Of a stretch of 64,000 nucleotides of DNA, positions 47,877 through 57,382 are shown in pieces. The notes under the pieces were generated by a model. It saw only the letters and a program-made list of their open reading frames with translations, had not been told where the DNA came from and did no database searches. A program made the position numbers and the translations under genes. Numbering within the stretch: position 1 is the first letter of the stretch; each line of letters opens with the position of its first letter. Source of the DNA: Parcubacteria group bacterium (GTDB lineage: Bacteria; Patescibacteriota; Minisyncoccia; Phycocordibacterales; Phycocordibacteraceae); the NCBI GenBank assembly GCA_028286605.1, contig JAQBRE010000002.1:464065-528064 (forward strand). The letters are read 5' to 3'.

Positions 47877-48995
47877 TTGCATTATCCAACTCTTATGGCC
47901 GCAAAAAGCACCAAGAAGGTTCCTGCTAAGAAAAAGACCGCCACCAAGGCGGCAAGCAAGACTGCGGCCGTAAAGATGCCATTCGATAGTGCGGTGCTGG
48001 TCAAAAAGCTCCTTTCTGAGGTGCCGGAACGCGCTCGCGAAGTGCTCGTCTATCGTTTCGGCCTCGGCACTTCTGCAGACCGCGAGACCCTCGAGGCTAT
48101 CGGCGAGCGCTGGAGCATTACGCGTGAACGCGTACGACAGATCGAAGCAGCCGGCCTCGAAGCGATTCGCTCGAGCAAGGCATTCAAGGATGCGACCGGT
48201 TCATTCGATGAGCTCGCCGCATACGTGCGTACGCTCGGCGCCGTCGTTGAAGAAGAGACGCTCCTTAACGGACTCGCTTCAGACGAAAAGGCACGCAACC
48301 GTTTCCGTTTCCTTCTCGTCGTGGGGTCTGCATTCTTCCGCGAACGCGAGACAGACGAATTCTACGCACGCTGGCATGTTGACCACGCGACGGCTGAACT
48401 CGTGCACAAGGCTCTCACCAGCCTCTACGCGCAGCTTTCCGATACGCAGGACCTTGCCGAAGGCGAGATGATGGACAAGTTCCTCGACGAACTGAAGGAT
48501 ATCAACGAGGCATACCGCAACGAGGAAGTCCTCAAGCGTTGGCTCTCTCTTTCCAAGACGATCTCTTCGAACCCGCTCGCTGAATGGGGACGCGCTGAAG
48601 CTCCGGCTATCCGTACGAAGGGTATCCGCGACTACGCATACCTCGTTATAAAGCGTGCCGGCGCTCCTATGCACTTCTCTGACGTAGCGAAGTCCATCAG
48701 CACGATGTTCGCGAAGGAGGCTCATGTCGCAACCACGCACAACGAGCTCATCAAGGATGCTCGCTTCGTGCTGGTCGGTCGCGGCCTCTACGCGCTTTCT
48801 GAATGGGGCTACCAGCCAGGCGTCGTACGCGACGTCATCAAGGTCGTCCTTAAGAAGGAAGGTCCCCTTACGCGCGAACGCGTCATGGAAGAAGTGAAGA
48901 AGGTCCGCTACGTGAAGGACAACACGATTCTCGTGAACCTGAACGACCCGCGCTACTTCAAGCGCAACAAGAACGGCACGTACACCGTCGCGTAA
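47877..48995 (+). CDS. Lys/Ala-rich histone-like tail + sigma-70 region-4-like HTH protein with C-terminal domain of unknown function
   Basis: KKVPAKKKTATKAASKTAAVK; EVLVYRFGLGTSADRETLEAIGERWSITRERVRQIEAAGL resembles sigma70 r4. Confidence 0.55.
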   Translation: MHYPTLMAAKSTKKVPAKKKTATKAASKTAAVKMPFDSAVLVKKLLSEVPERAREVLVYRFGLGTSADRETLEAIGERWSITRERVRQIEAAGLEAIRSSKAFKDATGSFDELAAYVRTLGAVVEEETLLNGLASDEKARNRFRFLLVVGSAFFRERETDEFYARWHVDHATAELVHKALTSLYAQLSDTQDLAEGEMMDKFLDELKDINEAYRNEEVLKRWLSLSKTISSNPLAEWGRAEAPAIRTKGIRDYAYLVIKRAGAPMHFSDVAKSISTMFAKEAHVATTHNELIKDARFVLVGRGLYALSEWGYQPGVVRDVIKVVLKKEGPLTRERVMEEVKKVRYVKDNTILVNLNDPRYFKRNKNGTYTVA

Positions 48996-49064: not shown

Positions 49065-50435
49065 ATGGATTGGTCTTCGCTTCCGGGAATTAAAACGATC
49101 GAGAACATTCACGGCTATGCTGCGAGTCACGGACGCTTCGTCGACTGGAAACCGATCGCGTATACGTTCGCAGGCCTTAATATCATATTCCTTATCATCG
49201 CTCCGGTGCAGACGTTCCGTAACTACGAATTCTTGCTCTTCTTCGCACCGCTCTGGCTGCCGATAGTACTGGTACAAGCTGCAACGCTTCGCAAACTCCA
49301 GGCGAACCGCGAAGATTTCCTGCTTAAGCAGAAATACGTACTCCTTGAAATGCGTCTGCCGCGCGACACCATGAAGACGCCGCTCGCTATGGAAACGTTC
49401 TTCTCCAATATGCACTTCGGGCCGGGTGAATCGACCACGTACAAGATAAAGGCAGGTGCTATGCGCCCGTGGTGGTCCTTCGAGATAGCTTCAATTGAAG
49501 GACGTGTTCATTTCTTTATTTGGACACGTGAAATGCAGCGACGTGGTATCGAAAGCTATCTGTATTCGCAGTATCCGGACATGGAAATAATCGAAGCAGA
49601 AGACTACAGCCGTATCTTCGACCCATCGGATTTCAGCAAGAACAGCATGTTCGGCGAAGAATTCAAGAAAGTGCATGCGAACAAGGATGCAAAAGCAGAT
49701 CCGTATCCGATAAAGACATACGTAGACTACGGTCTCGATAAAGCGGGAACGAAACCGGAAGAGCAGATCGATCCGCTCGCGCAGGTTATCGAGCTCTTAG
49801 GATCAATCGGTCCGAAGGAACAGTTCTGGATACAATTCATTATTCGCCAGAGCAAGGCCGAAAAGCATGGCGAAGACTGGAAGAAGGTCGGCGCAGCCGA
49901 AGTGGAGAAAATTCGTGCAGCAACCGTGAAGAAAACCACGCGCGTAGACCCCGTAACCGGTAACACGATAGAGACGAGCGGCTTCCCGAACCCAACCAAG
50001 GGTCAGCAGGAAACGATCAACGCTATCGAGCGCAACACGAACAAAGCGGGCTTCGATGTCGGCATACGCATGATCTATTCCGCGCCGAAGGATGCGTACC
50101 AGGGTGGCATGATCGCGTTTTTCATGTCGCTCTTCAAGCCGTTCACGAATGAGAACGGCGCAGGTTTCGCGCCCGTTCAGCAATACTCCGCTGCGTTCAA
50201 CGACTATCCATGGGAAGACCCGAAAGGATACGCGCATCGCGCGGTCGAGAAGAAGGTCGTGGACCTCTATCGTCAGCGGGCGTATTTCAATCAGCCGTAC
50301 AACGGCCCGTGGTCAATCATGAGTACCGAAGAACTCGCGACGCTTTTCCATGTGCCTTCAAGTACCGTGCAGACGCCGGCACTTCCGCGCATGCAATCTT
50401 CAACAAGCGGCGCGCCGTCGAATCTCCCTATCTAG
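49065..50435 (+). CDS. Membrane protein (2 N-terminal TM) with large cytoplasmic domain, hypothetical
   Basis: ORF track; hydrophobic segments; stop immediately precedes mltG ATG. Confidence 0.5.
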   Translation: MDWSSLPGIKTIENIHGYAASHGRFVDWKPIAYTFAGLNIIFLIIAPVQTFRNYEFLLFFAPLWLPIVLVQAATLRKLQANREDFLLKQKYVLLEMRLPRDTMKTPLAMETFFSNMHFGPGESTTYKIKAGAMRPWWSFEIASIEGRVHFFIWTREMQRRGIESYLYSQYPDMEIIEAEDYSRIFDPSDFSKNSMFGEEFKKVHANKDAKADPYPIKTYVDYGLDKAGTKPEEQIDPLAQVIELLGSIGPKEQFWIQFIIRQSKAEKHGEDWKKVGAAEVEKIRAATVKKTTRVDPVTGNTIETSGFPNPTKGQQETINAIERNTNKAGFDVGIRMIYSAPKDAYQGGMIAFFMSLFKPFTNENGAGFAPVQQYSAAFNDYPWEDPKGYAHRAVEKKVVDLYRQRAYFNQPYNGPWSIMSTEELATLFHVPSSTVQTPALPRMQSSTSGAPSNLPI

Positions 50436-51537: not shown

Positions 51538-52071
51538 TTAGGTCAAGAACAACGCACGAACCTCAAAAGGAGAGACAAGACGGAGATAGGCATGCGCCGC
51601 CACCTTCACGCTCTCGCTTGAGGTATTGTCTCCAGCGCTGACGATAAAGCGCTTCAGCTTTTTCCCGTGCCGATGCTCCTCAACAGTGAAAGGTATAGTC
51701 GATCTGAATCGCATCGTTGCTTCGCGTTCTTTGAGGAACTCGGAAAAACGATTCGCGATTTCTTTACGGGCGGACTCTGCCCATTTCGTTGAATGGATGG
51801 CTTTCGCCAACTTTTCTTCGAGGACTTCATCAAAGGTTTCTGCCCACCCGCGCAATACGAGCCCGTACAATATTGCGTGCTGCTCGAAATAAAACGCACC
51901 GGTAGGTAATGACGTGATGATGCGTTCTCCTACTCTGGCGCCCAGAGCAGTATCTGCAGCAGTCAGTTCCCAGATACCGCCGAGGACGGCGGCAACCGCG
52001 GAGCCGTCTCTTCGCTGGTCAGCCGCAAGGACAAAATCAATTAGTCTCTTGTACTCAGTAATACCGGCCAT
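51538..52071 (-). CDS. Hypothetical protein (177 aa) inside A/B-flanked cassette 2
   Basis: ORF track. Confidence 0.45.
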   Translation of the reverse strand: MAGITEYKRLIDFVLAADQRRDGSAVAAVLGGIWELTAADTALGARVGERIITSLPTGAFYFEQHAILYGLVLRGWAETFDEVLEEKLAKAIHSTKWAESARKEIANRFSEFLKEREATMRFRSTIPFTVEEHRHGKKLKRFIVSAGDNTSSESVKVAAHAYLRLVSPFEVRALFLT

Positions 52072-52261: not shown

Positions 52262-52675
52262 CTAAAACTCGACAGCTGCCGCGAGACGATATGGCTCGAG
52301 ACGTTCCTTGAGGGCAGGGAACTGTTCAAGAATCCCGTTTAGAAAGATAGGAAGCATTTGGTGCATGGCCAAGACATTCTTGAGATTTGGTTGCACACTA
52401 TATCCCAATGAAGCTCCACACTGACCTGCATAGATTAGGTTTCCGTGTGGAGTCCAGCAGTGCAGAACATATAGATACTCCTGTGAGTAGACGCCAGTTA
52501 TACGCCATCTGCCAGTGGAATCAGTACCAATATCCAACGCGTCTTTAGTGCTACCGTGAAGAAATTCTTCTGCCGTAAGGCTGCTCATACACAGCCGAAT
52601 GGTCGTATCTATATCCTTCTTCATACGGTCGATATTTTCTTGTCCTCGAACAAGGTCTGAAACTGAAAGGTTCAT
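52262..52675 (-). CDS. Hypothetical protein (137 aa)
   Basis: ORF track. Confidence 0.4.
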   Translation of the reverse strand: MNLSVSDLVRGQENIDRMKKDIDTTIRLCMSSLTAEEFLHGSTKDALDIGTDSTGRWRITGVYSQEYLYVLHCWTPHGNLIYAGQCGASLGYSVQPNLKNVLAMHQMLPIFLNGILEQFPALKERLEPYRLAAAVEF

Positions 52676-52818: not shown

Positions 52819-53871
52819 ATGGTAGCGATAATGGAATCGGTAAAAGGAAAGAAAGTATTCGTGGGGCTTTCTGGCGGCGTAGATTCGGCGGTTTCGGCTG
52901 CGTTATTGCAACACGCAGGCGCTGAGCTGACCGGCGTATTCATAAAAGGATGGTATCCGCCCGGCATGCCGTGTACCTGGGCGCAGGATCGCCGTGATGC
53001 GATGCGCGTTGCTGCGCATCTAGGTATTCCATTTCATACACTCGATGCATCTAGCGAATACAAGAAAGGAGTAATTGATTACCTGCTCAGCGAATATGCT
53101 GCAGGACGGACGCCGAATCCGGACATCATGTGCAACCGGGAAGTGAAGTTCGGCGCGTTCTATCAGTTCGCGAAAGCGCACGGCGCAGATTTCATTGCGA
53201 CGGGGCATTATGCACGCACTGAGAGTGGACGACTGCTGCGAGGTATTGATGAGGGAAAGGACCAGAGTTATTTCCTGTGGGCGATTCCGGAGGAATCGCT
53301 TACACATACGCTGTTCCCGGTTGGCGACATGCCGAAGAGCGAAGTACGTACGCTTGCAGAGAAGTTCAAGCTTCCCGTTGCAGACAAGCGCGATAGCCAG
53401 GGAATCTGTTTCCTTGGTTCGATTTCTGTTGGTGAGTTCCTGCGACAAGAACTCGGTACCACGCCTGGCAAAGCAATAGATGAAAGCGGGAAGGATATCG
53501 GCATGCACGACGGCGCCGTACTGCACACGCTTGGCGCGCGCATCAGCTTGCAGGATGCAGATGCTGGCCCTTGGTATGTGATTAGGAAAGATTTAGATAC
53601 GAACGTGCTTACGGTACGCAAGGGAAACGTCGAGCTCGCTGCACCGGCTGGCTCGCTCACGCTTCGTGAAGTGAATTGGTTCGAGCCTGCACTATTAGAA
53701 GGTGCGGTTGAAGCGCAATACCGTTATCACGGGCCGCGCATCGCGGGCCGCTATAACACGCACGCAAAATCCTTCACTCCGGACGATGCATTCCGTGAAC
53801 CTGTCGCGGCAGGGCAGTCGCTCGTGCTGTATTTCGGCGATACCTGTATCGGAGGTGGTATCATCGAGTAA
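52819..53871 (+). CDS. mnmA: tRNA-specific 2-thiouridylase
   Basis: PP-loop VFVGLSGGVDSAV; conserved Cys residues; C-terminal beta-barrel. Confidence 0.9.
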   Translation: MVAIMESVKGKKVFVGLSGGVDSAVSAALLQHAGAELTGVFIKGWYPPGMPCTWAQDRRDAMRVAAHLGIPFHTLDASSEYKKGVIDYLLSEYAAGRTPNPDIMCNREVKFGAFYQFAKAHGADFIATGHYARTESGRLLRGIDEGKDQSYFLWAIPEESLTHTLFPVGDMPKSEVRTLAEKFKLPVADKRDSQGICFLGSISVGEFLRQELGTTPGKAIDESGKDIGMHDGAVLHTLGARISLQDADAGPWYVIRKDLDTNVLTVRKGNVELAAPAGSLTLREVNWFEPALLEGAVEAQYRYHGPRIAGRYNTHAKSFTPDDAFREPVAAGQSLVLYFGDTCIGGGIIE

Positions 53872-54702
53872 ATGGCTGAAATAGTTAAAGCAGACGGAAC
53901 GATAGAGACATTCCTTCCGGAGAAACTCGAGGATTCGCTGCGTCGTGCAGGCGCAGGTGCCGGTGCTGCAGAAAAGATCCGTCGTACCATCGAAGCGAGC
54001 ATCGCGCCGGGTTCAGAGAGCAATGACATCTATAGGCGCGCGTTCCAGATGCTTCGCACGGAAGGGCGGGCCGCAGCGGCACGCTACAGCCTGCGTCGCG
54101 CACTTTTCGAATTCGGTCCATCTGGCCACCCGTTCGAAGACTTCGTTGGCGAGCTTTTCAAGAAAGAGGGCTGGAATATCGAGACGCGACGACTCATCCC
54201 TGGAAAGTGCGTCACGCATGAGGTGGATGTGTATGCGACGCGTGGAAAAGAAACGCTTGCTGCGGAACTCAAATATCATAATGATCCAGGATACAAGACC
54301 GACGTGAAGATCGCACTCTATGTAAAAGCGCGCTTCGACGACATCTGGCAGTGCGATCCGAACGTGCAGGGAACCTGCCCGATAGATCGCGGATACCTTA
54401 TCACCAACACGAAGTTCACGTCGCAGGCTATCGAATACGCTACCTGTTCCGGCATGAATCTTCTTGGCTGGAGCTATCCGCATCACGGAAACCTGTATGA
54501 CCGCATCATCGCGAGCGCACTGTATCCGATAACCGCACTCACTACGCTGCGCAAAGCAGAGAAGCGCCTCCTTATCGATCGCAACATCTCCACCACGGAC
54601 CTCCTTCGCCAGCATCGTGAATTGCTCCGCGAGATCGGCGTATCGCCTGAACGCGTCGGCGCTATCGTCGCAGAAATTGAGACCTTGAACGATACGCGAT
54701 AG
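53872..54702 (+). CDS. ATP-cone domain fused to Mrr-like (PD-(D/E)XK) restriction-endonuclease domain
   Basis: N-terminal ATP-cone-like MAEIVKADGTIETFLPEKLEDSLRRAG...AEKIRRTIEASI; nuclease core FEDFVGELF...HEVDVYA...AELKY (D...E-x-K); ATG abuts mnmA TAA. Confidence 0.7.
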   Translation: MAEIVKADGTIETFLPEKLEDSLRRAGAGAGAAEKIRRTIEASIAPGSESNDIYRRAFQMLRTEGRAAAARYSLRRALFEFGPSGHPFEDFVGELFKKEGWNIETRRLIPGKCVTHEVDVYATRGKETLAAELKYHNDPGYKTDVKIALYVKARFDDIWQCDPNVQGTCPIDRGYLITNTKFTSQAIEYATCSGMNLLGWSYPHHGNLYDRIIASALYPITALTTLRKAEKRLLIDRNISTTDLLRQHRELLREIGVSPERVGAIVAEIETLNDTR

Positions 54703-54711
54703 AATAGGTGC

Positions 54712-55512
54712 ATGGCTGAATACGTTAAGAGATATAACCCGAACCGTAGTCCTGATTGGAACTATGGCGGCCCGAAGTGGCGTCTCTCACGTTCGAAGAT
54801 AGAGCTTTTCACTGAATGCCCGCGTTGTTTCTATTTAGATAATAAGCTCGGCACCGCACGTCCGCGCGGCCCTTCCTTCACGCTCAACATCGCCGTTGAT
54901 GCGCTCCTGAAGAAAGAATTCGATGAGCATCGCATAGAAGGTTCGGCGCACCCACTCATGGAGCAGTACGGCATCGACGCGATTCCGTTCAAGCATAAGA
55001 ATATGAATACATGGCGCGAGAACTTCGAGGGCGTGGAGTTTAAGCATAAAGAAACGGGCTTCACTATTTCTGGTGCCGTTGACGATATCTGGGTTAATCC
55101 AGAAGGCGAGCTTATCGTCGTGGACTACAAGGCGACATCAAAGGAAGGAAAGATCGTAACGCTCGACGACTCCTCGTGGAAAGACCAGTACAGCCGGCAG
55201 ATGGGCGTGTATCAGTGGCTGCTCCGTAACAACGGCTTCACCGTTTCACCGAAGGGATATTTCGTATATGCGAATGCAAGCAGCGACAAAGCAGCGTTCG
55301 ATGGCCAGCTTGAGTTCGATGTGACTGTCGTGCCGATGGAGGGCGACACTTCATGGATAGATGAGATCCTTCCGAAGATAAAGACAGCACTCGATAGCGA
55401 TGAGATTCCCGCAACCGGAAGCGCCTGCGAGTTCTGCCCGTACCGTGAAGCAGCAGGGAAGAAGCTGCTCGATCTCCACAAGAAAAGCCTGCACATCAAG
55501 AAGACAGACTAG
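54712..55512 (+). CDS. PD-(D/E)XK nuclease with four-Cys cluster (Cas4/RecB-nuclease-like, DUF83-type)
   Basis: N-terminal CPRC, VVDYKATS (D-x-K), C-terminal CEFCPY. Confidence 0.65.
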   Translation: MAEYVKRYNPNRSPDWNYGGPKWRLSRSKIELFTECPRCFYLDNKLGTARPRGPSFTLNIAVDALLKKEFDEHRIEGSAHPLMEQYGIDAIPFKHKNMNTWRENFEGVEFKHKETGFTISGAVDDIWVNPEGELIVVDYKATSKEGKIVTLDDSSWKDQYSRQMGVYQWLLRNNGFTVSPKGYFVYANASSDKAAFDGQLEFDVTVVPMEGDTSWIDEILPKIKTALDSDEIPATGSACEFCPYREAAGKKLLDLHKKSLHIKKTD

Positions 55513-55575
55513 CCTTAACGAGCCATACAGGTTCGTGCGTTCATACTGATTCCGAACGCCCTTTAGGAGGAACCG

Positions 55576-55764
55576 ATGGCTGAAGAGACTGACGTACCGA
55601 TTACGAAAGATGACCTGGTCCGCAAAGGACCGAATCTCCATCCGTATTACGAGGTTGTCTGGATAGACGGCGAAGAAGTATGGCTGCGCAACGCCAACAC
55701 TCGCGAAAGCCACGTGTGCCTGCTGAGCGAATGCACGAAGATAGAGCTTCAGCCGATCCTGTAG
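55576..55764 (+). CDS. Small hypothetical protein (62 aa)
   Basis: AGGAGG RBS 6 nt upstream; terminator 55773-55800. Confidence 0.45.
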   Translation: MAEETDVPITKDDLVRKGPNLHPYYEVVWIDGEEVWLRNANTRESHVCLLSECTKIELQPIL

Positions 55765-55810
55765 CTAAGACGAAAGGGCCGCGCGTTGCGCGGCCCTTGG
55801 CTTGTCCATC

Positions 55811-56047
55811 TTATTTCGGGCGATGGATTATTCGTGCGAGATTATCCAGGCCTTCCTGACGATTGAATTTAAGATGGCCCATGATAACCCATCTGATTTC
55901 CGCATTTTCGACAAGTTGCATCCGTGCGTCTTCGACCGAGATCGTATAGACAGACACAGAGTCCGCTTGTTCTCCGAAAATCCGCTCTGCACGGAGTTTC
56001 TGTTCCTCCATAGACCCTTCAACGAACATCGTTTTCGGAATCATCAT
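55811..56047 (-). CDS. Small hypothetical protein (78 aa)
   Basis: AGGAGGGAGAGG RBS upstream on minus strand. Confidence 0.45.
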   Translation of the reverse strand: MMIPKTMFVEGSMEEQKLRAERIFGEQADSVSVYTISVEDARMQLVENAEIRWVIMGHLKFNRQEGLDNLARIIHRPK

Positions 56048-56243
56048 CTGCCTCTCCCTCCTGTTCAGCTAAAACTATTATACTAATAAATTTAATTCAT
56101 GTAAAGAATACCAATAATTGACTCCTGCTGCCGAAGGCGTATATTCATTGTAGTACTCGTGGCCGTAAGGCCTTCCCCCGCTACACTTTTGTGTTGAGCG
56201 AGCAACGAGTATCATGAAAAACCCGAGGTTCGCCTCGGGTTTT

Positions 56244-56630
56244 TCACATTTTACATTTACGTTCACACATCACGCTTAAGAAATGAAGCTTTCCTGAAGG
56301 CTTATTGCGTATAACAACAACTTTTACCTCACATTCAACACCATTGGTGAATACAGGAAATGATAGACCCCACGTTACTACGAGCGGGTCTTCAGATTTA
56401 ATCATTTCAAATGCTTGAATAGCATTTGAAAGAACAATATGAATATAGGGAAGAAGGCTCAATCGATAGCGCCTCTGGGATTTTATTCTTGGGCGCTGCG
56501 TACGTCTGTCATATAACAAGTGGTGTAACCCTTCCGAGTTAAAGTAAATCATTTCCTGCAAGGCTGCACAGAAGATAGGTTGGAAAGATCTATAAAGTGA
56601 CTTCTGTTTCTCCTCAAAGGACTTTTGCAT
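56244..56630 (-). CDS. Hypothetical protein in AT-rich islet
   Basis: ORF track; ~38% GC region 56080-56700. Confidence 0.35.
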   Translation of the reverse strand: MQKSFEEKQKSLYRSFQPIFCAALQEMIYFNSEGLHHLLYDRRTQRPRIKSQRRYRLSLLPYIHIVLSNAIQAFEMIKSEDPLVVTWGLSFPVFTNGVECEVKVVVIRNKPSGKLHFLSVMCERKCKM

Positions 56631-56713
56631 TTGAGAAGTATTCCACCATCAGAATAGGCGGCAAATTTCACGTCATATATTCTTTATATCTTCTTTAACT
56701 TATACTCATTGAC

Positions 56714-57382
56714 ATGGAAGTAAAGATCGAATCATCGTGGAAAAAGCATCTGAAAGATGAATTCGAGAAACCTTATTTCAAGGAACTCACTGAATTCGTA
56801 AAGAAAGAGTATGAGAAAGGCAGTGTCTATCCTGCGCCGAAGAATATATTCCGTGCTTTCGAGCTGACGCCGTTCGATGAGGTGAAAGTGGTAATACTTG
56901 GTCAGGATCCGTACCACGGACCGAAGCAGGCTATCGGCCTTTCGTTCGCGGTGAATGAAGGCGTGCGCAACCCTCCTTCGCTGCAGAATATTTTCAAGGA
57001 AATCGAGAGCGACTTCAGCACGCCGATGGTGCATACGGGTGGTGATCTTTCCCGCTGGGCAGAACAAGGAGTGCTGCTTCTGAATGCAACGCTCACGGTA
57101 CGTGCCGCTACGGCAGGTTCGCATCAGGGAAAGGGGTGGGAAGAATTCACCGATGCCGTGATACAGAAACTTTCGGATGAGCGTGAGCATTTGGTGTTTA
57201 TCCTGTGGGGGAACTATGCGCGCGCCAAAGGCGCGCGCATAGACCGCACGAAGCATCTCGTTATCGAATCCGCGCACCCCTCACCATTCTCTGCATACAA
57301 TGGCTTTTTCGGTTCAAAACCCTTTAGCAAAGCCAACGCATACCTCAAAGCGCACGGTGAAAAACCGATCGATTGGCTATAG
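56714..57382 (+). CDS. ung: Uracil-DNA glycosylase family 1
   Basis: VVILGQDPYHGPKQAIGLSFAV and HPSPFSA motifs. Confidence 0.9.
   Translation: MEVKIESSWKKHLKDEFEKPYFKELTEFVKKEYEKGSVYPAPKNIFRAFELTPFDEVKVVILGQDPYHGPKQAIGLSFAVNEGVRNPPSLQNIFKEIESDFSTPMVHTGGDLSRWAEQGVLLLNATLTVRAATAGSHQGKGWEEFTDAVIQKLSDEREHLVFILWGNYARAKGARIDRTKHLVIESAHPSPFSAYNGFFGSKPFSKANAYLKAHGEKPIDWL

Follow-up and report, generated by a model that had tools for sequence, protein, structure and literature searches.

The tRNA-modification gene mnmA is followed by two predicted nuclease genes, here called P2 and P3, in a 64,000-nucleotide stretch of DNA from a Parcubacteria group bacterium (contig JAQBRE010000002.1, positions 464,065 to 528,064; hereafter the window). 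The P2 start codon (ATG, 53872) comes immediately after the mnmA stop codon (TAA, 53869-53871), with no gap between them; the P2 reading frame ends with TAG at 54700-54702, and P3 begins after a spacer of nine nucleotides. An earlier sequence-only reading of the same stretch had pointed to the abutting codons, the spacer, and the motifs HEVDVYA, AELKY, VVDYKATS, CPRC and CEFCPY, all of which are present in the sequence. The features of the locus are listed below, with coordinates counted from the first nucleotide of the window.

52819..53871, + strand: mnmA, tRNA 2-thiouridine(34) synthase (NF001138 MnmA; Pfam tRNA_Me_trans), first gene of the likely unit
53872..54702, + strand: P2, 276 amino acids, an ATP-cone joined to a Mrr/AF1548-type PD-(D/E)XK nuclease and a helical C-terminal domain
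53878..54108, + strand: ATP-cone of P2, residues ~3-79 (Pfam PF03477, Foldseek, family profile)
54121..54471, + strand: PD-(D/E)XK nuclease core of P2, residues ~84-200 (Mrr_cat, homology to 1Y88)
54484..54690, + strand: C-terminal helical domain of P2, residues ~205-273 (Pfam AF1548-like_C)
54703..54711, + strand: P2-P3 spacer, 9 nucleotides, aatAGGTGc, with a Shine-Dalgarno-like AGGTG at 54706-54710, read from the sequence
54712..55512, + strand: P3, 266 amino acids, a RecB/Cas4-superfamily PD-(D/E)XK exonuclease-like protein
54817..54828, + strand: N-terminal cysteine pair of P3, C36-P-R-C39 (CPRC)
55426..55437, + strand: C-terminal cysteine pair of P3, C239-E-F-C242 (in CEFCPY)
55576..55764, + strand: orf62, 62 amino acids, after P3 and before the hairpin, with a perfect AGGAGG at 55565-55570
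56215..56246: hairpin with a 14-bp stem, seven G-C pairs, and A and T runs on its flanks
56714..57382, + strand: ung, family-1 uracil-DNA glycosylase with a GQDPYH motif (Pfam UDG, 2.4e-16)

MnmA scores 351 bits against NF001138 (cut-off 284). A terminator scan of the + strand from the P2 start (53872) to 56215 found no terminator-like site ahead of the hairpin, and mnmA, P2, P3 and perhaps orf62 are therefore likely to form one transcription unit. A weaker terminator-like match lies within mnmA at 53395-53419. From its sequence, the hairpin at 56215-56246 is likely a bidirectional terminator that closes the unit and splits it from ung. In the window, ung is thus placed by prediction in a separate transcription unit, though it is a conserved downstream neighbour of the nucleases. 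orf62 is possibly the last gene of the unit, lineage-specific and co-transcribed with the nucleases; it has no Pfam, NCBIfam, PADLOC or PHROG match, and no tblastn match across the 80 related loci described below. Minus-strand open reading frames that overlap P2 and P3 (for example, 54013-54615) were set aside because nothing supports them.

Domain architecture of P2 and P3

Ribonucleotide reductase (RNR) and its repressor NrdR are switched by dATP/ATP through a known domain, the ATP-cone, whose binding of ATP or dATP changes the oligomeric state. The sequence-only reading had proposed that P2 joins such a domain to an Mrr-like nuclease, and this proposal holds up, although the window protein by itself scores 23.1 bits (E = 1.1e-4, residues 4-76) against a gathering score of 25.8 for the Pfam ATP-cone model PF03477. 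Many P2 homologues (40-94% identity) carry a precomputed PF03477 match. In the AlphaFold model of P2 (pLDDT 93, pTM 0.88), Foldseek places the cone, a beta-hairpin with a helical bundle, on the E. coli NrdR structures 9fxk, 9gex and 9fvr over 81 columns at 1.9-2.7 A with a probability of 1.00, and on the class III RNR 9d3x over 86 columns at 2.8 A. The P2 family profile aligns with NrdR residues 50-127, with the family pattern [IV]-x-K-[AST]-x-G-x-x-E-x-F-x-x-x-K-L set against V-V-K-S-N-D-V-R-E-P-F-N-E-E-K-L in NrdR. Because the structures superpose and the family pattern aligns with NrdR, the assignment of the P2 N-terminus as an ATP-cone appears sound at the level of the family and of the modelled structure.

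Conservation within the cone is concentrated on a small set of residues. K6, G9, S22, Y54 and Y72 are invariant in P2 family alignments, while K18 is invariant in one alignment (A4) and at least 90% conserved in two others (A1 and A2). P2 residues ~3-79 share with the NrdR and RNR cones the same fold, the hairpin lysine K6 and the second lysine K18, in the arrangement v-x-K-x-x-G...F...K-L. By analogy with those proteins, the P2 cone may bind ATP or dATP. P2 differs from NrdR and RNR in having K-A/S in place of the K-R dipeptide, and in its output, which is a nuclease instead of a catalytic subunit of RNR or a DNA-binding repressor of the zinc-ribbon kind.

The nuclease half of the proposed fusion passes its own threshold, with 26.2 bits against the Pfam Mrr_cat model PF04471 (gathering score 21). 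From residue 91 to residue 270, P2 shows homology to AF1548 of Archaeoglobus fulgidus (PDB 1Y88), with E-values of 8e-25 by phmmer from the single sequence and 4e-48 from the family profile. Foldseek likewise matches P2 to 1Y88 (6e-13, TM 0.76 on the target), covering the C-terminal two thirds of P2. A restriction-endonuclease fold and a catalytic D/E/K set have been predicted for AF1548 (PMC1821046), which a survey of PD-(D/E)XK proteins places with Mrr_cat (PMC3424549). The P2 catalytic residues align with the predicted catalytic D/E/K of AF1548. Alignments of 142 and of 85 diverse P2 homologues show no variation at E89, D119, E132 or K134; E117 and D119 fall in the HEVDVYA motif, and E132 and K134 in AELKY. 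H116, E117, H136, R154 and D157 are also invariant in the core. The invariance of E89, D119, E132 and K134 points to a nuclease site that is intact throughout the family.

AF1548 resembles P2 residues ~91-270 in its D...ExK triad and its C-terminal helical domain, but it lacks the ATP-cone, and its chain begins at the nuclease core. As a structural-genomics protein with no known function (PMC1821046), AF1548 offers no guide to the substrate or role of P2. The C-terminal domain is weakly matched in the window protein (PF22357, E = 0.014), yet the same match is precomputed in many homologues. This tail, modelled as helices from 208 to 273, aligns with the C-terminal part of 1Y88 and may bind nucleic acid.

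Other Foldseek matches of the P2 core include MspJI and AspBHI, as well as Can2 and Cdn1 at E-values from 5e-4 to 2e-2. P2 is like the Mrr/MspJI-type restriction endonucleases in passing the Mrr_cat threshold and in its match to the MspJI and AspBHI nuclease domains. Unlike these enzymes, P2 has no DNA-modification reader (a winged-helix or SRA-like N-terminus) and shows the synteny and conservation of a housekeeping gene, where restriction genes are patchy in distribution. Can2/Card1 and Cdn1 also fuse an adenine-nucleotide-type sensor to a PD-(D/E)XK nuclease, and only their cores match P2. The sensor is CARF in those proteins and an ATP-cone in P2, which has no CRISPR or CBASS context and is a conserved chromosomal gene, not an accessory gene of defence. 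The resemblance is one of functional logic, not of membership.

P3 scores 61.8 bits against the Pfam model PDDEXK_1 (PF12705, threshold 22; 1.3e-16). Its motifs are GAVDD (D124/D125), VVDYKATS (D138, K140) and QMGVY (Q163...Y167), and among P3 homologues D124/D125, D138-Y-K140, Q163 and Y167 are invariant. The earlier identification of a second PD-(D/E)XK nuclease bearing four cysteines is borne out by this score and these invariant motifs. P3 falls below the cut-offs of both Cas4 models searched (TIGR00372, 36.9 against 65; PF01930, 19.3 against 22.7) and matches PADLOC Cas4 models at ~1e-10. Among the PHROGs, it matches phrog_31195 (unknown function) at 3.6e-14, along with several families labelled 'exonuclease' or 'Cas4-domain'. 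Foldseek neighbours of the P3 model (pLDDT 84) are RecE, the AdnA/AdnB nuclease domains, a type I-C Cas4, MGME1, lambda exonuclease, Exo5, the SSO0001 Cas4 and AddB, all of them modest fold matches (TM 0.3-0.46). A BFVD search returned generic phage RecB/Cas4-like exonucleases and nothing more specific. No helicase is fused or adjacent to P3.

The canonical iron-sulfur pattern of Cas4 and AddB consists of one N-terminal cysteine and a C-x2-C-x5-C motif at the C-terminus. P3 lacks the third C-terminal cysteine and has instead the arrangement CxxC...CxxC. This arrangement is invariant in 51 homologues, occurs in both of the P3 subtypes described below, and is kept in a gammaproteobacterial plasmid homologue with 42% identity. 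P3 shares its fold and its D / D-x-K / Q-x-x-x-Y motifs with Cas4, AddB, AdnAB, Exo5 and RecE, and with Cas4 and AddB it also shares cysteines at the two ends of the domain (the iron-sulfur 'staple'). The cysteine spacing differs (CxxC...CxxC versus C...CxxCxxxxxC), whereas the topology, in which N- and C-terminal segments are pinned, is the same. The four P3 cysteines form a putative 2+2 metal site, for zinc or an iron-sulfur cluster, that would tie the N- and C-terminal segments together.

The sequence-only reading had called this arrangement typical of Cas4/AddB-type nucleases, a description that the cysteine spacing and the sub-threshold Cas4 scores contradict. Cas4 identity was rejected on those two grounds, on the lack of a CRISPR array and on the housekeeping character of the neighbouring genes; judged from its sequence, P3 is best described as a member of the RecB/Cas4 superfamily and not as a Cas4. 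The earlier statement that no CRISPR array lies nearby stands, since TRF and a direct-repeat search found no CRISPR-like array in the 64 kb window. The accompanying statement about cas1 stands less firmly: no cas1 or cas2 was noted by P3, and its neighbours in the 80 related loci are housekeeping genes, but no cas1 profile search was run on every open reading frame.

The only plasmid-borne P3 homologue, the one with 42% identity mentioned above, is found on Flagellatimonas centrodinii plasmid NZ_CP092105 (136246-137250, 334 amino acids). It sits among hypothetical genes, a nucleotide-kinase-domain gene and a large helicase-related gene, in surroundings that look phage- or plasmid-like. The 2+2-cysteine subfamily therefore occurs on mobile DNA too.

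Gene order and distribution of the two families

Gene order around P2 was compared across 80 related loci, with one genome scanned per species; all come from Paceibacteria-type metagenome-assembled genomes (MAGs). Upstream of P2, mnmA is present in 79 of the 80 loci and a DUF8128 gene in 70. Downstream, P3 is present in 74 and ung in 72, with the gene for alanyl-tRNA synthetase (AlaRS) further along in at least 50. Two independently chosen P3 homologues also have P2 directly upstream and lie in the same gene block. Median identity to the window protein is 70% for P2, 74% for P3 and 76% for Ung, compared with 64% for MnmA, 47% for YceG and 49% for DUF8128. The higher median identity of P2 and P3 than of MnmA, a universal tRNA-modification enzyme, indicates a stronger constraint on both nucleases.

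Spacing within the block is uneven. The gap between mnmA and P2 is at most 50 nucleotides in 50 of 79 loci and exceeds 300 in 25, while the P2-P3 gap is at most 50 nucleotides in 52 of 74 loci and exceeds 300, with other genes inserted, in 17. The distance from P3 to ung is variable (median ~310 nucleotides). P3 itself falls into two subtypes, with 39 loci at or above 65% identity to the window protein and 35 at ~49-57%, and the adjacent P2 shows no matching divergence. This spread suggests that the P3 gene has been replaced or exchanged within the clade.

The P2 family reaches well beyond this clade. When 1.84 billion representatives of 50%-identity clusters were scored, 399 clusters fell below E = 1e-30, nearly all of them full-length and 275-290 amino acids long. 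Named members found by profile search belong to the Patescibacteria and to Saprospiraceae, Fluviicola, Lutibacter and other Bacteroidota, and most carry all three Pfam domains. Two other Patescibacteria, with ~40% P2 identity, keep the order leucyl-tRNA synthetase (LeuRS) - sigma - DUF8128 - YceG - mnmA - P2; after P2 they have MgtC and then AlaRS, with no P3 and no Ung. Two further Patescibacteria have P2 in other contexts. Only the mnmA-P2 link reaches more distant Patescibacteria. P2 and P3 do not make up a general unit: the clade of the window is the only one with P3 behind P2, and in other Patescibacteria, Bacteroidota, Chlamydiota and Acidobacteriota P2 is by itself or has other partners. 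The place of P2 in the housekeeping backbone is an old one, and in the clade of the window P3 and Ung fill the variable slot that separates P2 from AlaRS.

Outside the candidate phyla radiation (CPR), P2 keeps different company. An Acidobacteriota MAG has the order P2 - LGT - thymidine-phosphorylase family - phosphoribosyl pyrophosphate (PRPP) synthetase. Plasmids of Pontibacter actiniarum (Bacteroidota, NZ_CP021236) and Criblamydia sequanensis (Chlamydiota, NZ_LK031773) have P2 - metallo-beta-lactamase (MBL) hydrolase - thymidine-phosphorylase family - Prs, and the Criblamydia cluster sits between phosphoketolase/GlgP (glycogen phosphorylase) and acetate kinase genes. In one further lineage, a PNP/UDP phosphorylase gene overlaps P2 beside deoA-, deoC-, nupC- and cdd-like genes. 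Two Bacteroidota loci have a beta-CASP hydrolase gene after P2, with universal stress protein (Usp) genes nearby.

A survey of 80 non-CPR metagenome loci, found with alignment A4, is biased to relatives of one Bacteroidota-type sequence, and its counts are not phylogenetically independent. Within this set, a same-strand beta-CASP gene starts within 700 nucleotides downstream of P2 in 36 of the 67 loci whose sequence continues for 1 kb or more on that side. A Usp gene, often part of a tandem Usp array, ends within 700 nucleotides upstream in 32 of 62. In 11 of 39, the 7 kb downstream of P2 include a phosphorylase-family gene, in most cases with a PRPP synthetase gene behind it; PRPP synthetase was detected in 10 of the 80. 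mnmA, P3 and ung occur in none of the 80 loci. The phosphorylase in the P2 clusters belongs to an archaeal-type subfamily (NF003338, TIGR02645) and scores 480-506 against an AMP-phosphorylase cut-off of 535; the hydrolase is an aCPSF1/Cas14-like beta-CASP protein, and Prs belongs to the PRK07199 subfamily (NCBIfam). A 2-hydroxyacid dehydrogenase gene and a P-type ATPase gene often accompany the cluster.

At least three phyla show the pattern of Usp, P2, beta-CASP, phosphorylase and Prs, which resembles a module for hypoxia or energy stress and is found on plasmids as well; no description of such a cluster was found in the literature searched. In Bradyrhizobium, a trio of MBL, Prs and thymidine-phosphorylase-family genes (bll3115-3117) is induced by microoxia at both the protein and the transcript level (PMC6515984 Table 2). 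Usp, CBS and MlaE/MCE genes are microoxia-induced alongside this trio (PMC6515984 Table 2). The Bradyrhizobium trio is an indirect, candidate parallel to the P2 clusters.

These comparisons bear on the earlier suggestion that the nucleases are translationally coupled to mnmA. Tight co-directional packing is indeed observed, but the exact abutment seen in the window is not kept across the related loci, and the coupling is best read as conserved gene order. A functional link between mnmA and P2 was set aside on the same ground and because mnmA is absent from all non-CPR P2 loci.

The wider backbone of the window runs from MreB through a DNA polymerase III delta'-like gene, a sigma70/HARE-HTH gene, DUF8128, YceG, mnmA, P2, P3, Ung and two M16 peptidases to AlaRS; a PriA gene is also present. 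The sigma-70 region 4 / HARE-HTH protein (47877-48995, +) adjoins the DUF8128 gene, and the order sigma - DUF8128 - YceG - mnmA is kept across Patescibacteria. The DUF8128 protein (49065-50435, +; 456 amino acids) has no match in the copy of Pfam searched, and its homologues carry PF26449. The listed yceG open reading frame starts at 50350 and overlaps the DUF8128 gene by 86 nucleotides, so the true yceG start probably lies further downstream. Most of the 80 related loci have yceG next to mnmA. In the window, two minus-strand open reading frames lie between these genes (51538-52071, 177 amino acids; 52262-52675, 137 amino acids), with no credible Pfam match and no homologue in the 80 loci; the pair is a lineage-specific insertion.

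The slot between P3 and ung ranges from ~40 nucleotides to more than 2.5 kb in related genomes. In the window, its G+C content dips to 0.42-0.47 (55500-57000), compared with 0.50-0.55 in the flanks. A minus-strand open reading frame of 128 amino acids (56244-56630) ends in this slot at the hairpin, and it has no family match and no relatives in the 80 related loci. Elsewhere in the window, a coding tandem repeat (419-619, in the open reading frame 182-733) has 21/42-nucleotide periods and ~8 copies and encodes an acidic E/D-rich peptide (…EDIEEIQED…).

Proposed function of P2 and P3, and alternatives

With about even confidence, we read P2 and P3 as part of a housekeeping unit of Parcubacteria/Paceibacteria, in which P2 is a ligand-gated nuclease for nucleic-acid turnover and nucleotide economy and P3 is a partner exonuclease. 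In this proposal, the N-terminal ATP-cone of the single P2 chain would sense the adenine-nucleotide state (ATP versus dATP or ADP) and switch the oligomeric or conformational state of the protein, as cones do in NrdR and RNR, thereby gating the endonuclease. The helical tail would hold nucleic acid for a cut by the Mrr/AF1548-type PD-(D/E)XK core. In a poor nucleotide or energy state P2 would cut the polymer, and in a good state the polymer would be spared. Such turnover would matter most to a salvage-dependent CPR bacterium. P3, acting independently of CRISPR and co-transcribed with P2 in this clade, would probably trim the ends that P2 makes or process DNA ends otherwise.

Domain identities, intact catalytic residues, conservation, synteny and the lack of matches in phage collections are observations; the rest of the proposal builds on precedent and context. 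Gating by a nucleotide is suggested by the precedent of NrdR and RNR. A role for P2 in nucleic-acid turnover tied to nucleotide and energy state is suggested by its neighbourhoods, in which Usp, beta-CASP, phosphorylase and Prs genes recur. In free-living phyla, P2 heads stress-type clusters that could take a polymer to nucleoside monophosphates, then to ribose phosphates and on to PRPP. The position that P3 holds is that of beta-CASP elsewhere, which suggests an endonuclease-plus-exonuclease pair; P2 with P3 might thus follow the same logic as P2 with beta-CASP in other phyla. P2 would act on DNA or RNA, and its cooperation with P3 is putative, as is the salvage role.

Several observations weigh against the proposal. 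The window's cone scores under the Pfam sequence threshold, and the K-R dipeptide of classic cones is K-A in this protein and K followed by A, S or T in the family. In other Patescibacteria, P2 has no nuclease neighbour and is followed by MgtC, VTT or other genes, and a partner exonuclease is therefore not required. P3 does not follow P2 in at least three of the related loci (L003, L050 and L055), and the P2-P3 adjacency may be the frozen gene order of a streamlined genome. Outside the CPR, the neighbours of P2 are a mixed set that takes in Mla, TauE and Cu/P-type ATPase genes; 15 of the 80 non-CPR loci have a P-type ATPase, and about half of these 80 have no beta-CASP gene. The Bradyrhizobium parallel is weakened in that a P2 homologue is not established there. 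No biochemical or functional data on any member of the P2 family were found in the literature searched.

P2 also lies among copper/metal-resistance genes in three unrelated lineages, of Acidobacteriota, Bacteroidota and Wildermuthbacteria (L081, L088 and L092). The genes in question encode a multicopper oxidase, a P-type ATPase and metal-responsive repressors, and an AAA_28 kinase-like gene adjoins in two of the three loci. The idea of nucleotide salvage does not account for these neighbours.

A possible though doubtful alternative is that P2 and P3 are functionally unrelated, each with a separate role, and that their adjacency to each other and to mnmA reflects slow gene-order change in a reduced genome. 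Synteny extends over the entire stretch between the sigma factor and AlaRS, both included, and takes in such plainly unrelated genes as YceG, the M16 peptidases and aminoacyl-tRNA synthetases, as this alternative would have it. It also fits the lack of P3 beside P2 in more distant Patescibacteria and in all of the non-CPR loci, the two P3 subtypes (~75-85% and ~50-57% identity) that have no counterpart in P2, and the 17 of 74 loci in which other genes separate P2 from P3. Co-expression is nonetheless predicted from the 9-nucleotide spacing, the Shine-Dalgarno-like motif and the lack of a terminator, and the short P2-P3 gap recurs in 52 of the 74 loci. A beta-CASP exonuclease-type gene in the same post-P2 slot elsewhere further suggests that the pairing is a recurring one. 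It is less probable still, and in our view unlikely, that the genes form a DNA repair and recombination set, with P2 a structure-specific endonuclease (for damaged sites, or of the Hjc/Holliday-junction-resolvase kind) tied to deoxynucleotide pools through its cone, P3 resecting ends and Ung excising bases. The Mrr/Hjc-type core and AF1548-like helical tail of P2 are compatible with such a role, and the nearest solved folds to P3 (RecE, AdnAB, AddB, Exo5 and MGME1) are end-processing nucleases. ung accompanies the nucleases as a conserved neighbour (72 of 80 loci), and PriA and a DNA polymerase III delta'-like gene lie in the wider window. Some source annotations even name P2 homologues 'Holliday junction resolvase', but these labels are automatic. 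ung forms a separate transcription unit here, at a variable distance from P3, and no helicase or recombinase is adjacent. Outside the clade, moreover, P2 is never found with repair genes but with Usp, beta-CASP RNase, nucleoside/nucleotide phosphorylase and Prs genes. If P2 is an ordinary repair enzyme after all, the result is a routine refinement of annotation.

The sequence-only reading had offered a defence module as one of two options. An anti-phage or anti-plasmid module, in which infection-altered ATP/dATP pools trigger the Mrr-like nuclease and the Cas4-like nuclease assists, is very unlikely. In its favour, defence systems often use Mrr-type and Cas4-type nucleases, the type IV enzymes MspJI and AspBHI and the cyclic-oligoadenylate-activated Can2 and Cdn1 are similar to the P2 core, and P3 matches PADLOC Cas4 models, as noted above. 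AbiE genes are found a few genes away from one homologue and an Eco57I-type methylase gene near another, and two P2 homologues are on plasmids. Yet P2 has no match in PADLOC (PADLOC-DB 2.0, systems to 2023) or in the PHROGs, P3 matches no PADLOC models other than those of Cas4, neither protein has a tblastn match in 50,697 phage genomes, and among 2.9 million viral contigs, pattern scans turned up a single remote relative of P3 and none of P2. Defence genes are patchy and fast-evolving, whereas P2 and P3 show near-universal housekeeping synteny in 80 species and greater conservation than MnmA. The neighbourhood survey, suggested earlier as a way to detect defence islands, found housekeeping genes in the 80 relatives, and the plasmid copies of P2 have metabolic neighbours. 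The window holds no CRISPR array, and the locus shows no compositional anomaly: the G+C content of P2 and P3 (0.53-0.555) equals that of the flanks, with only the P3-ung stretch (55.5-57 kb) lower. Both a defence module and a horizontal-transfer island were rejected on these grounds. By their sequence context, P2 and P3 look like vertically inherited chromosomal housekeeping genes, not mobile defence. The second option of the sequence-only reading, a nucleic-acid processing module, is the one that the evidence favours.

Significance for nucleotide economy

The three-domain architecture of P2 is already annotated in databases, under names such as 'ATP cone domain-containing protein', 'restriction endonuclease' and 'ATPase'. 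In the full-text literature searched, no functional or comparative study was found of the ATP-cone/nuclease fusion, of AF1548 function, or of the Usp - beta-CASP - phosphorylase cluster. The P2 family is large, strongly constrained and uncharacterised. The earlier claim of an uncharacterised combination thus stands in that no functional study of either family appears in the searched literature, and is narrowed in that the pairing of P2 with P3 is confined to the window's clade. The CxxC...CxxC variant of the Cas4/RecB 'staple' is of smaller interest, for the metal chemistry of nucleases.

Returning to P2 as a ligand-gated nuclease, we tentatively extend the proposal to a third job for the ATP-cone, beyond RNR and NrdR. 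Across Patescibacteria, Bacteroidota, Chlamydiota and Acidobacteriota, the cone might gate a PD-(D/E)XK endonuclease by ATP/dATP state, with an exonuclease partner that would be beta-CASP in free-living phyla and the CxxC...CxxC RecB/Cas4-like enzyme in this Paceibacteria clade. Nucleic acid would thereby be turned into nucleotides that feed an AMP-phosphorylase-like enzyme and Prs in hypoxia or starvation, and in salvage-living CPR this would have become a fixed core function. The fusion of cone and nuclease, if it truly works as a switch, would extend nucleotide-pool sensing from the synthesis of deoxynucleotides to the breakdown of nucleic acids. The Usp-P2-beta-CASP-phosphorylase-Prs clusters offer culturable systems, such as Pontibacter and other Bacteroidota. 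CPR/Patescibacteria do not make nucleotides de novo, and scavenged nucleic acids are thought to sustain them; if the proposal is true, a core-genome nuclease gated by nucleotides would be a concrete part of that salvage lifestyle.

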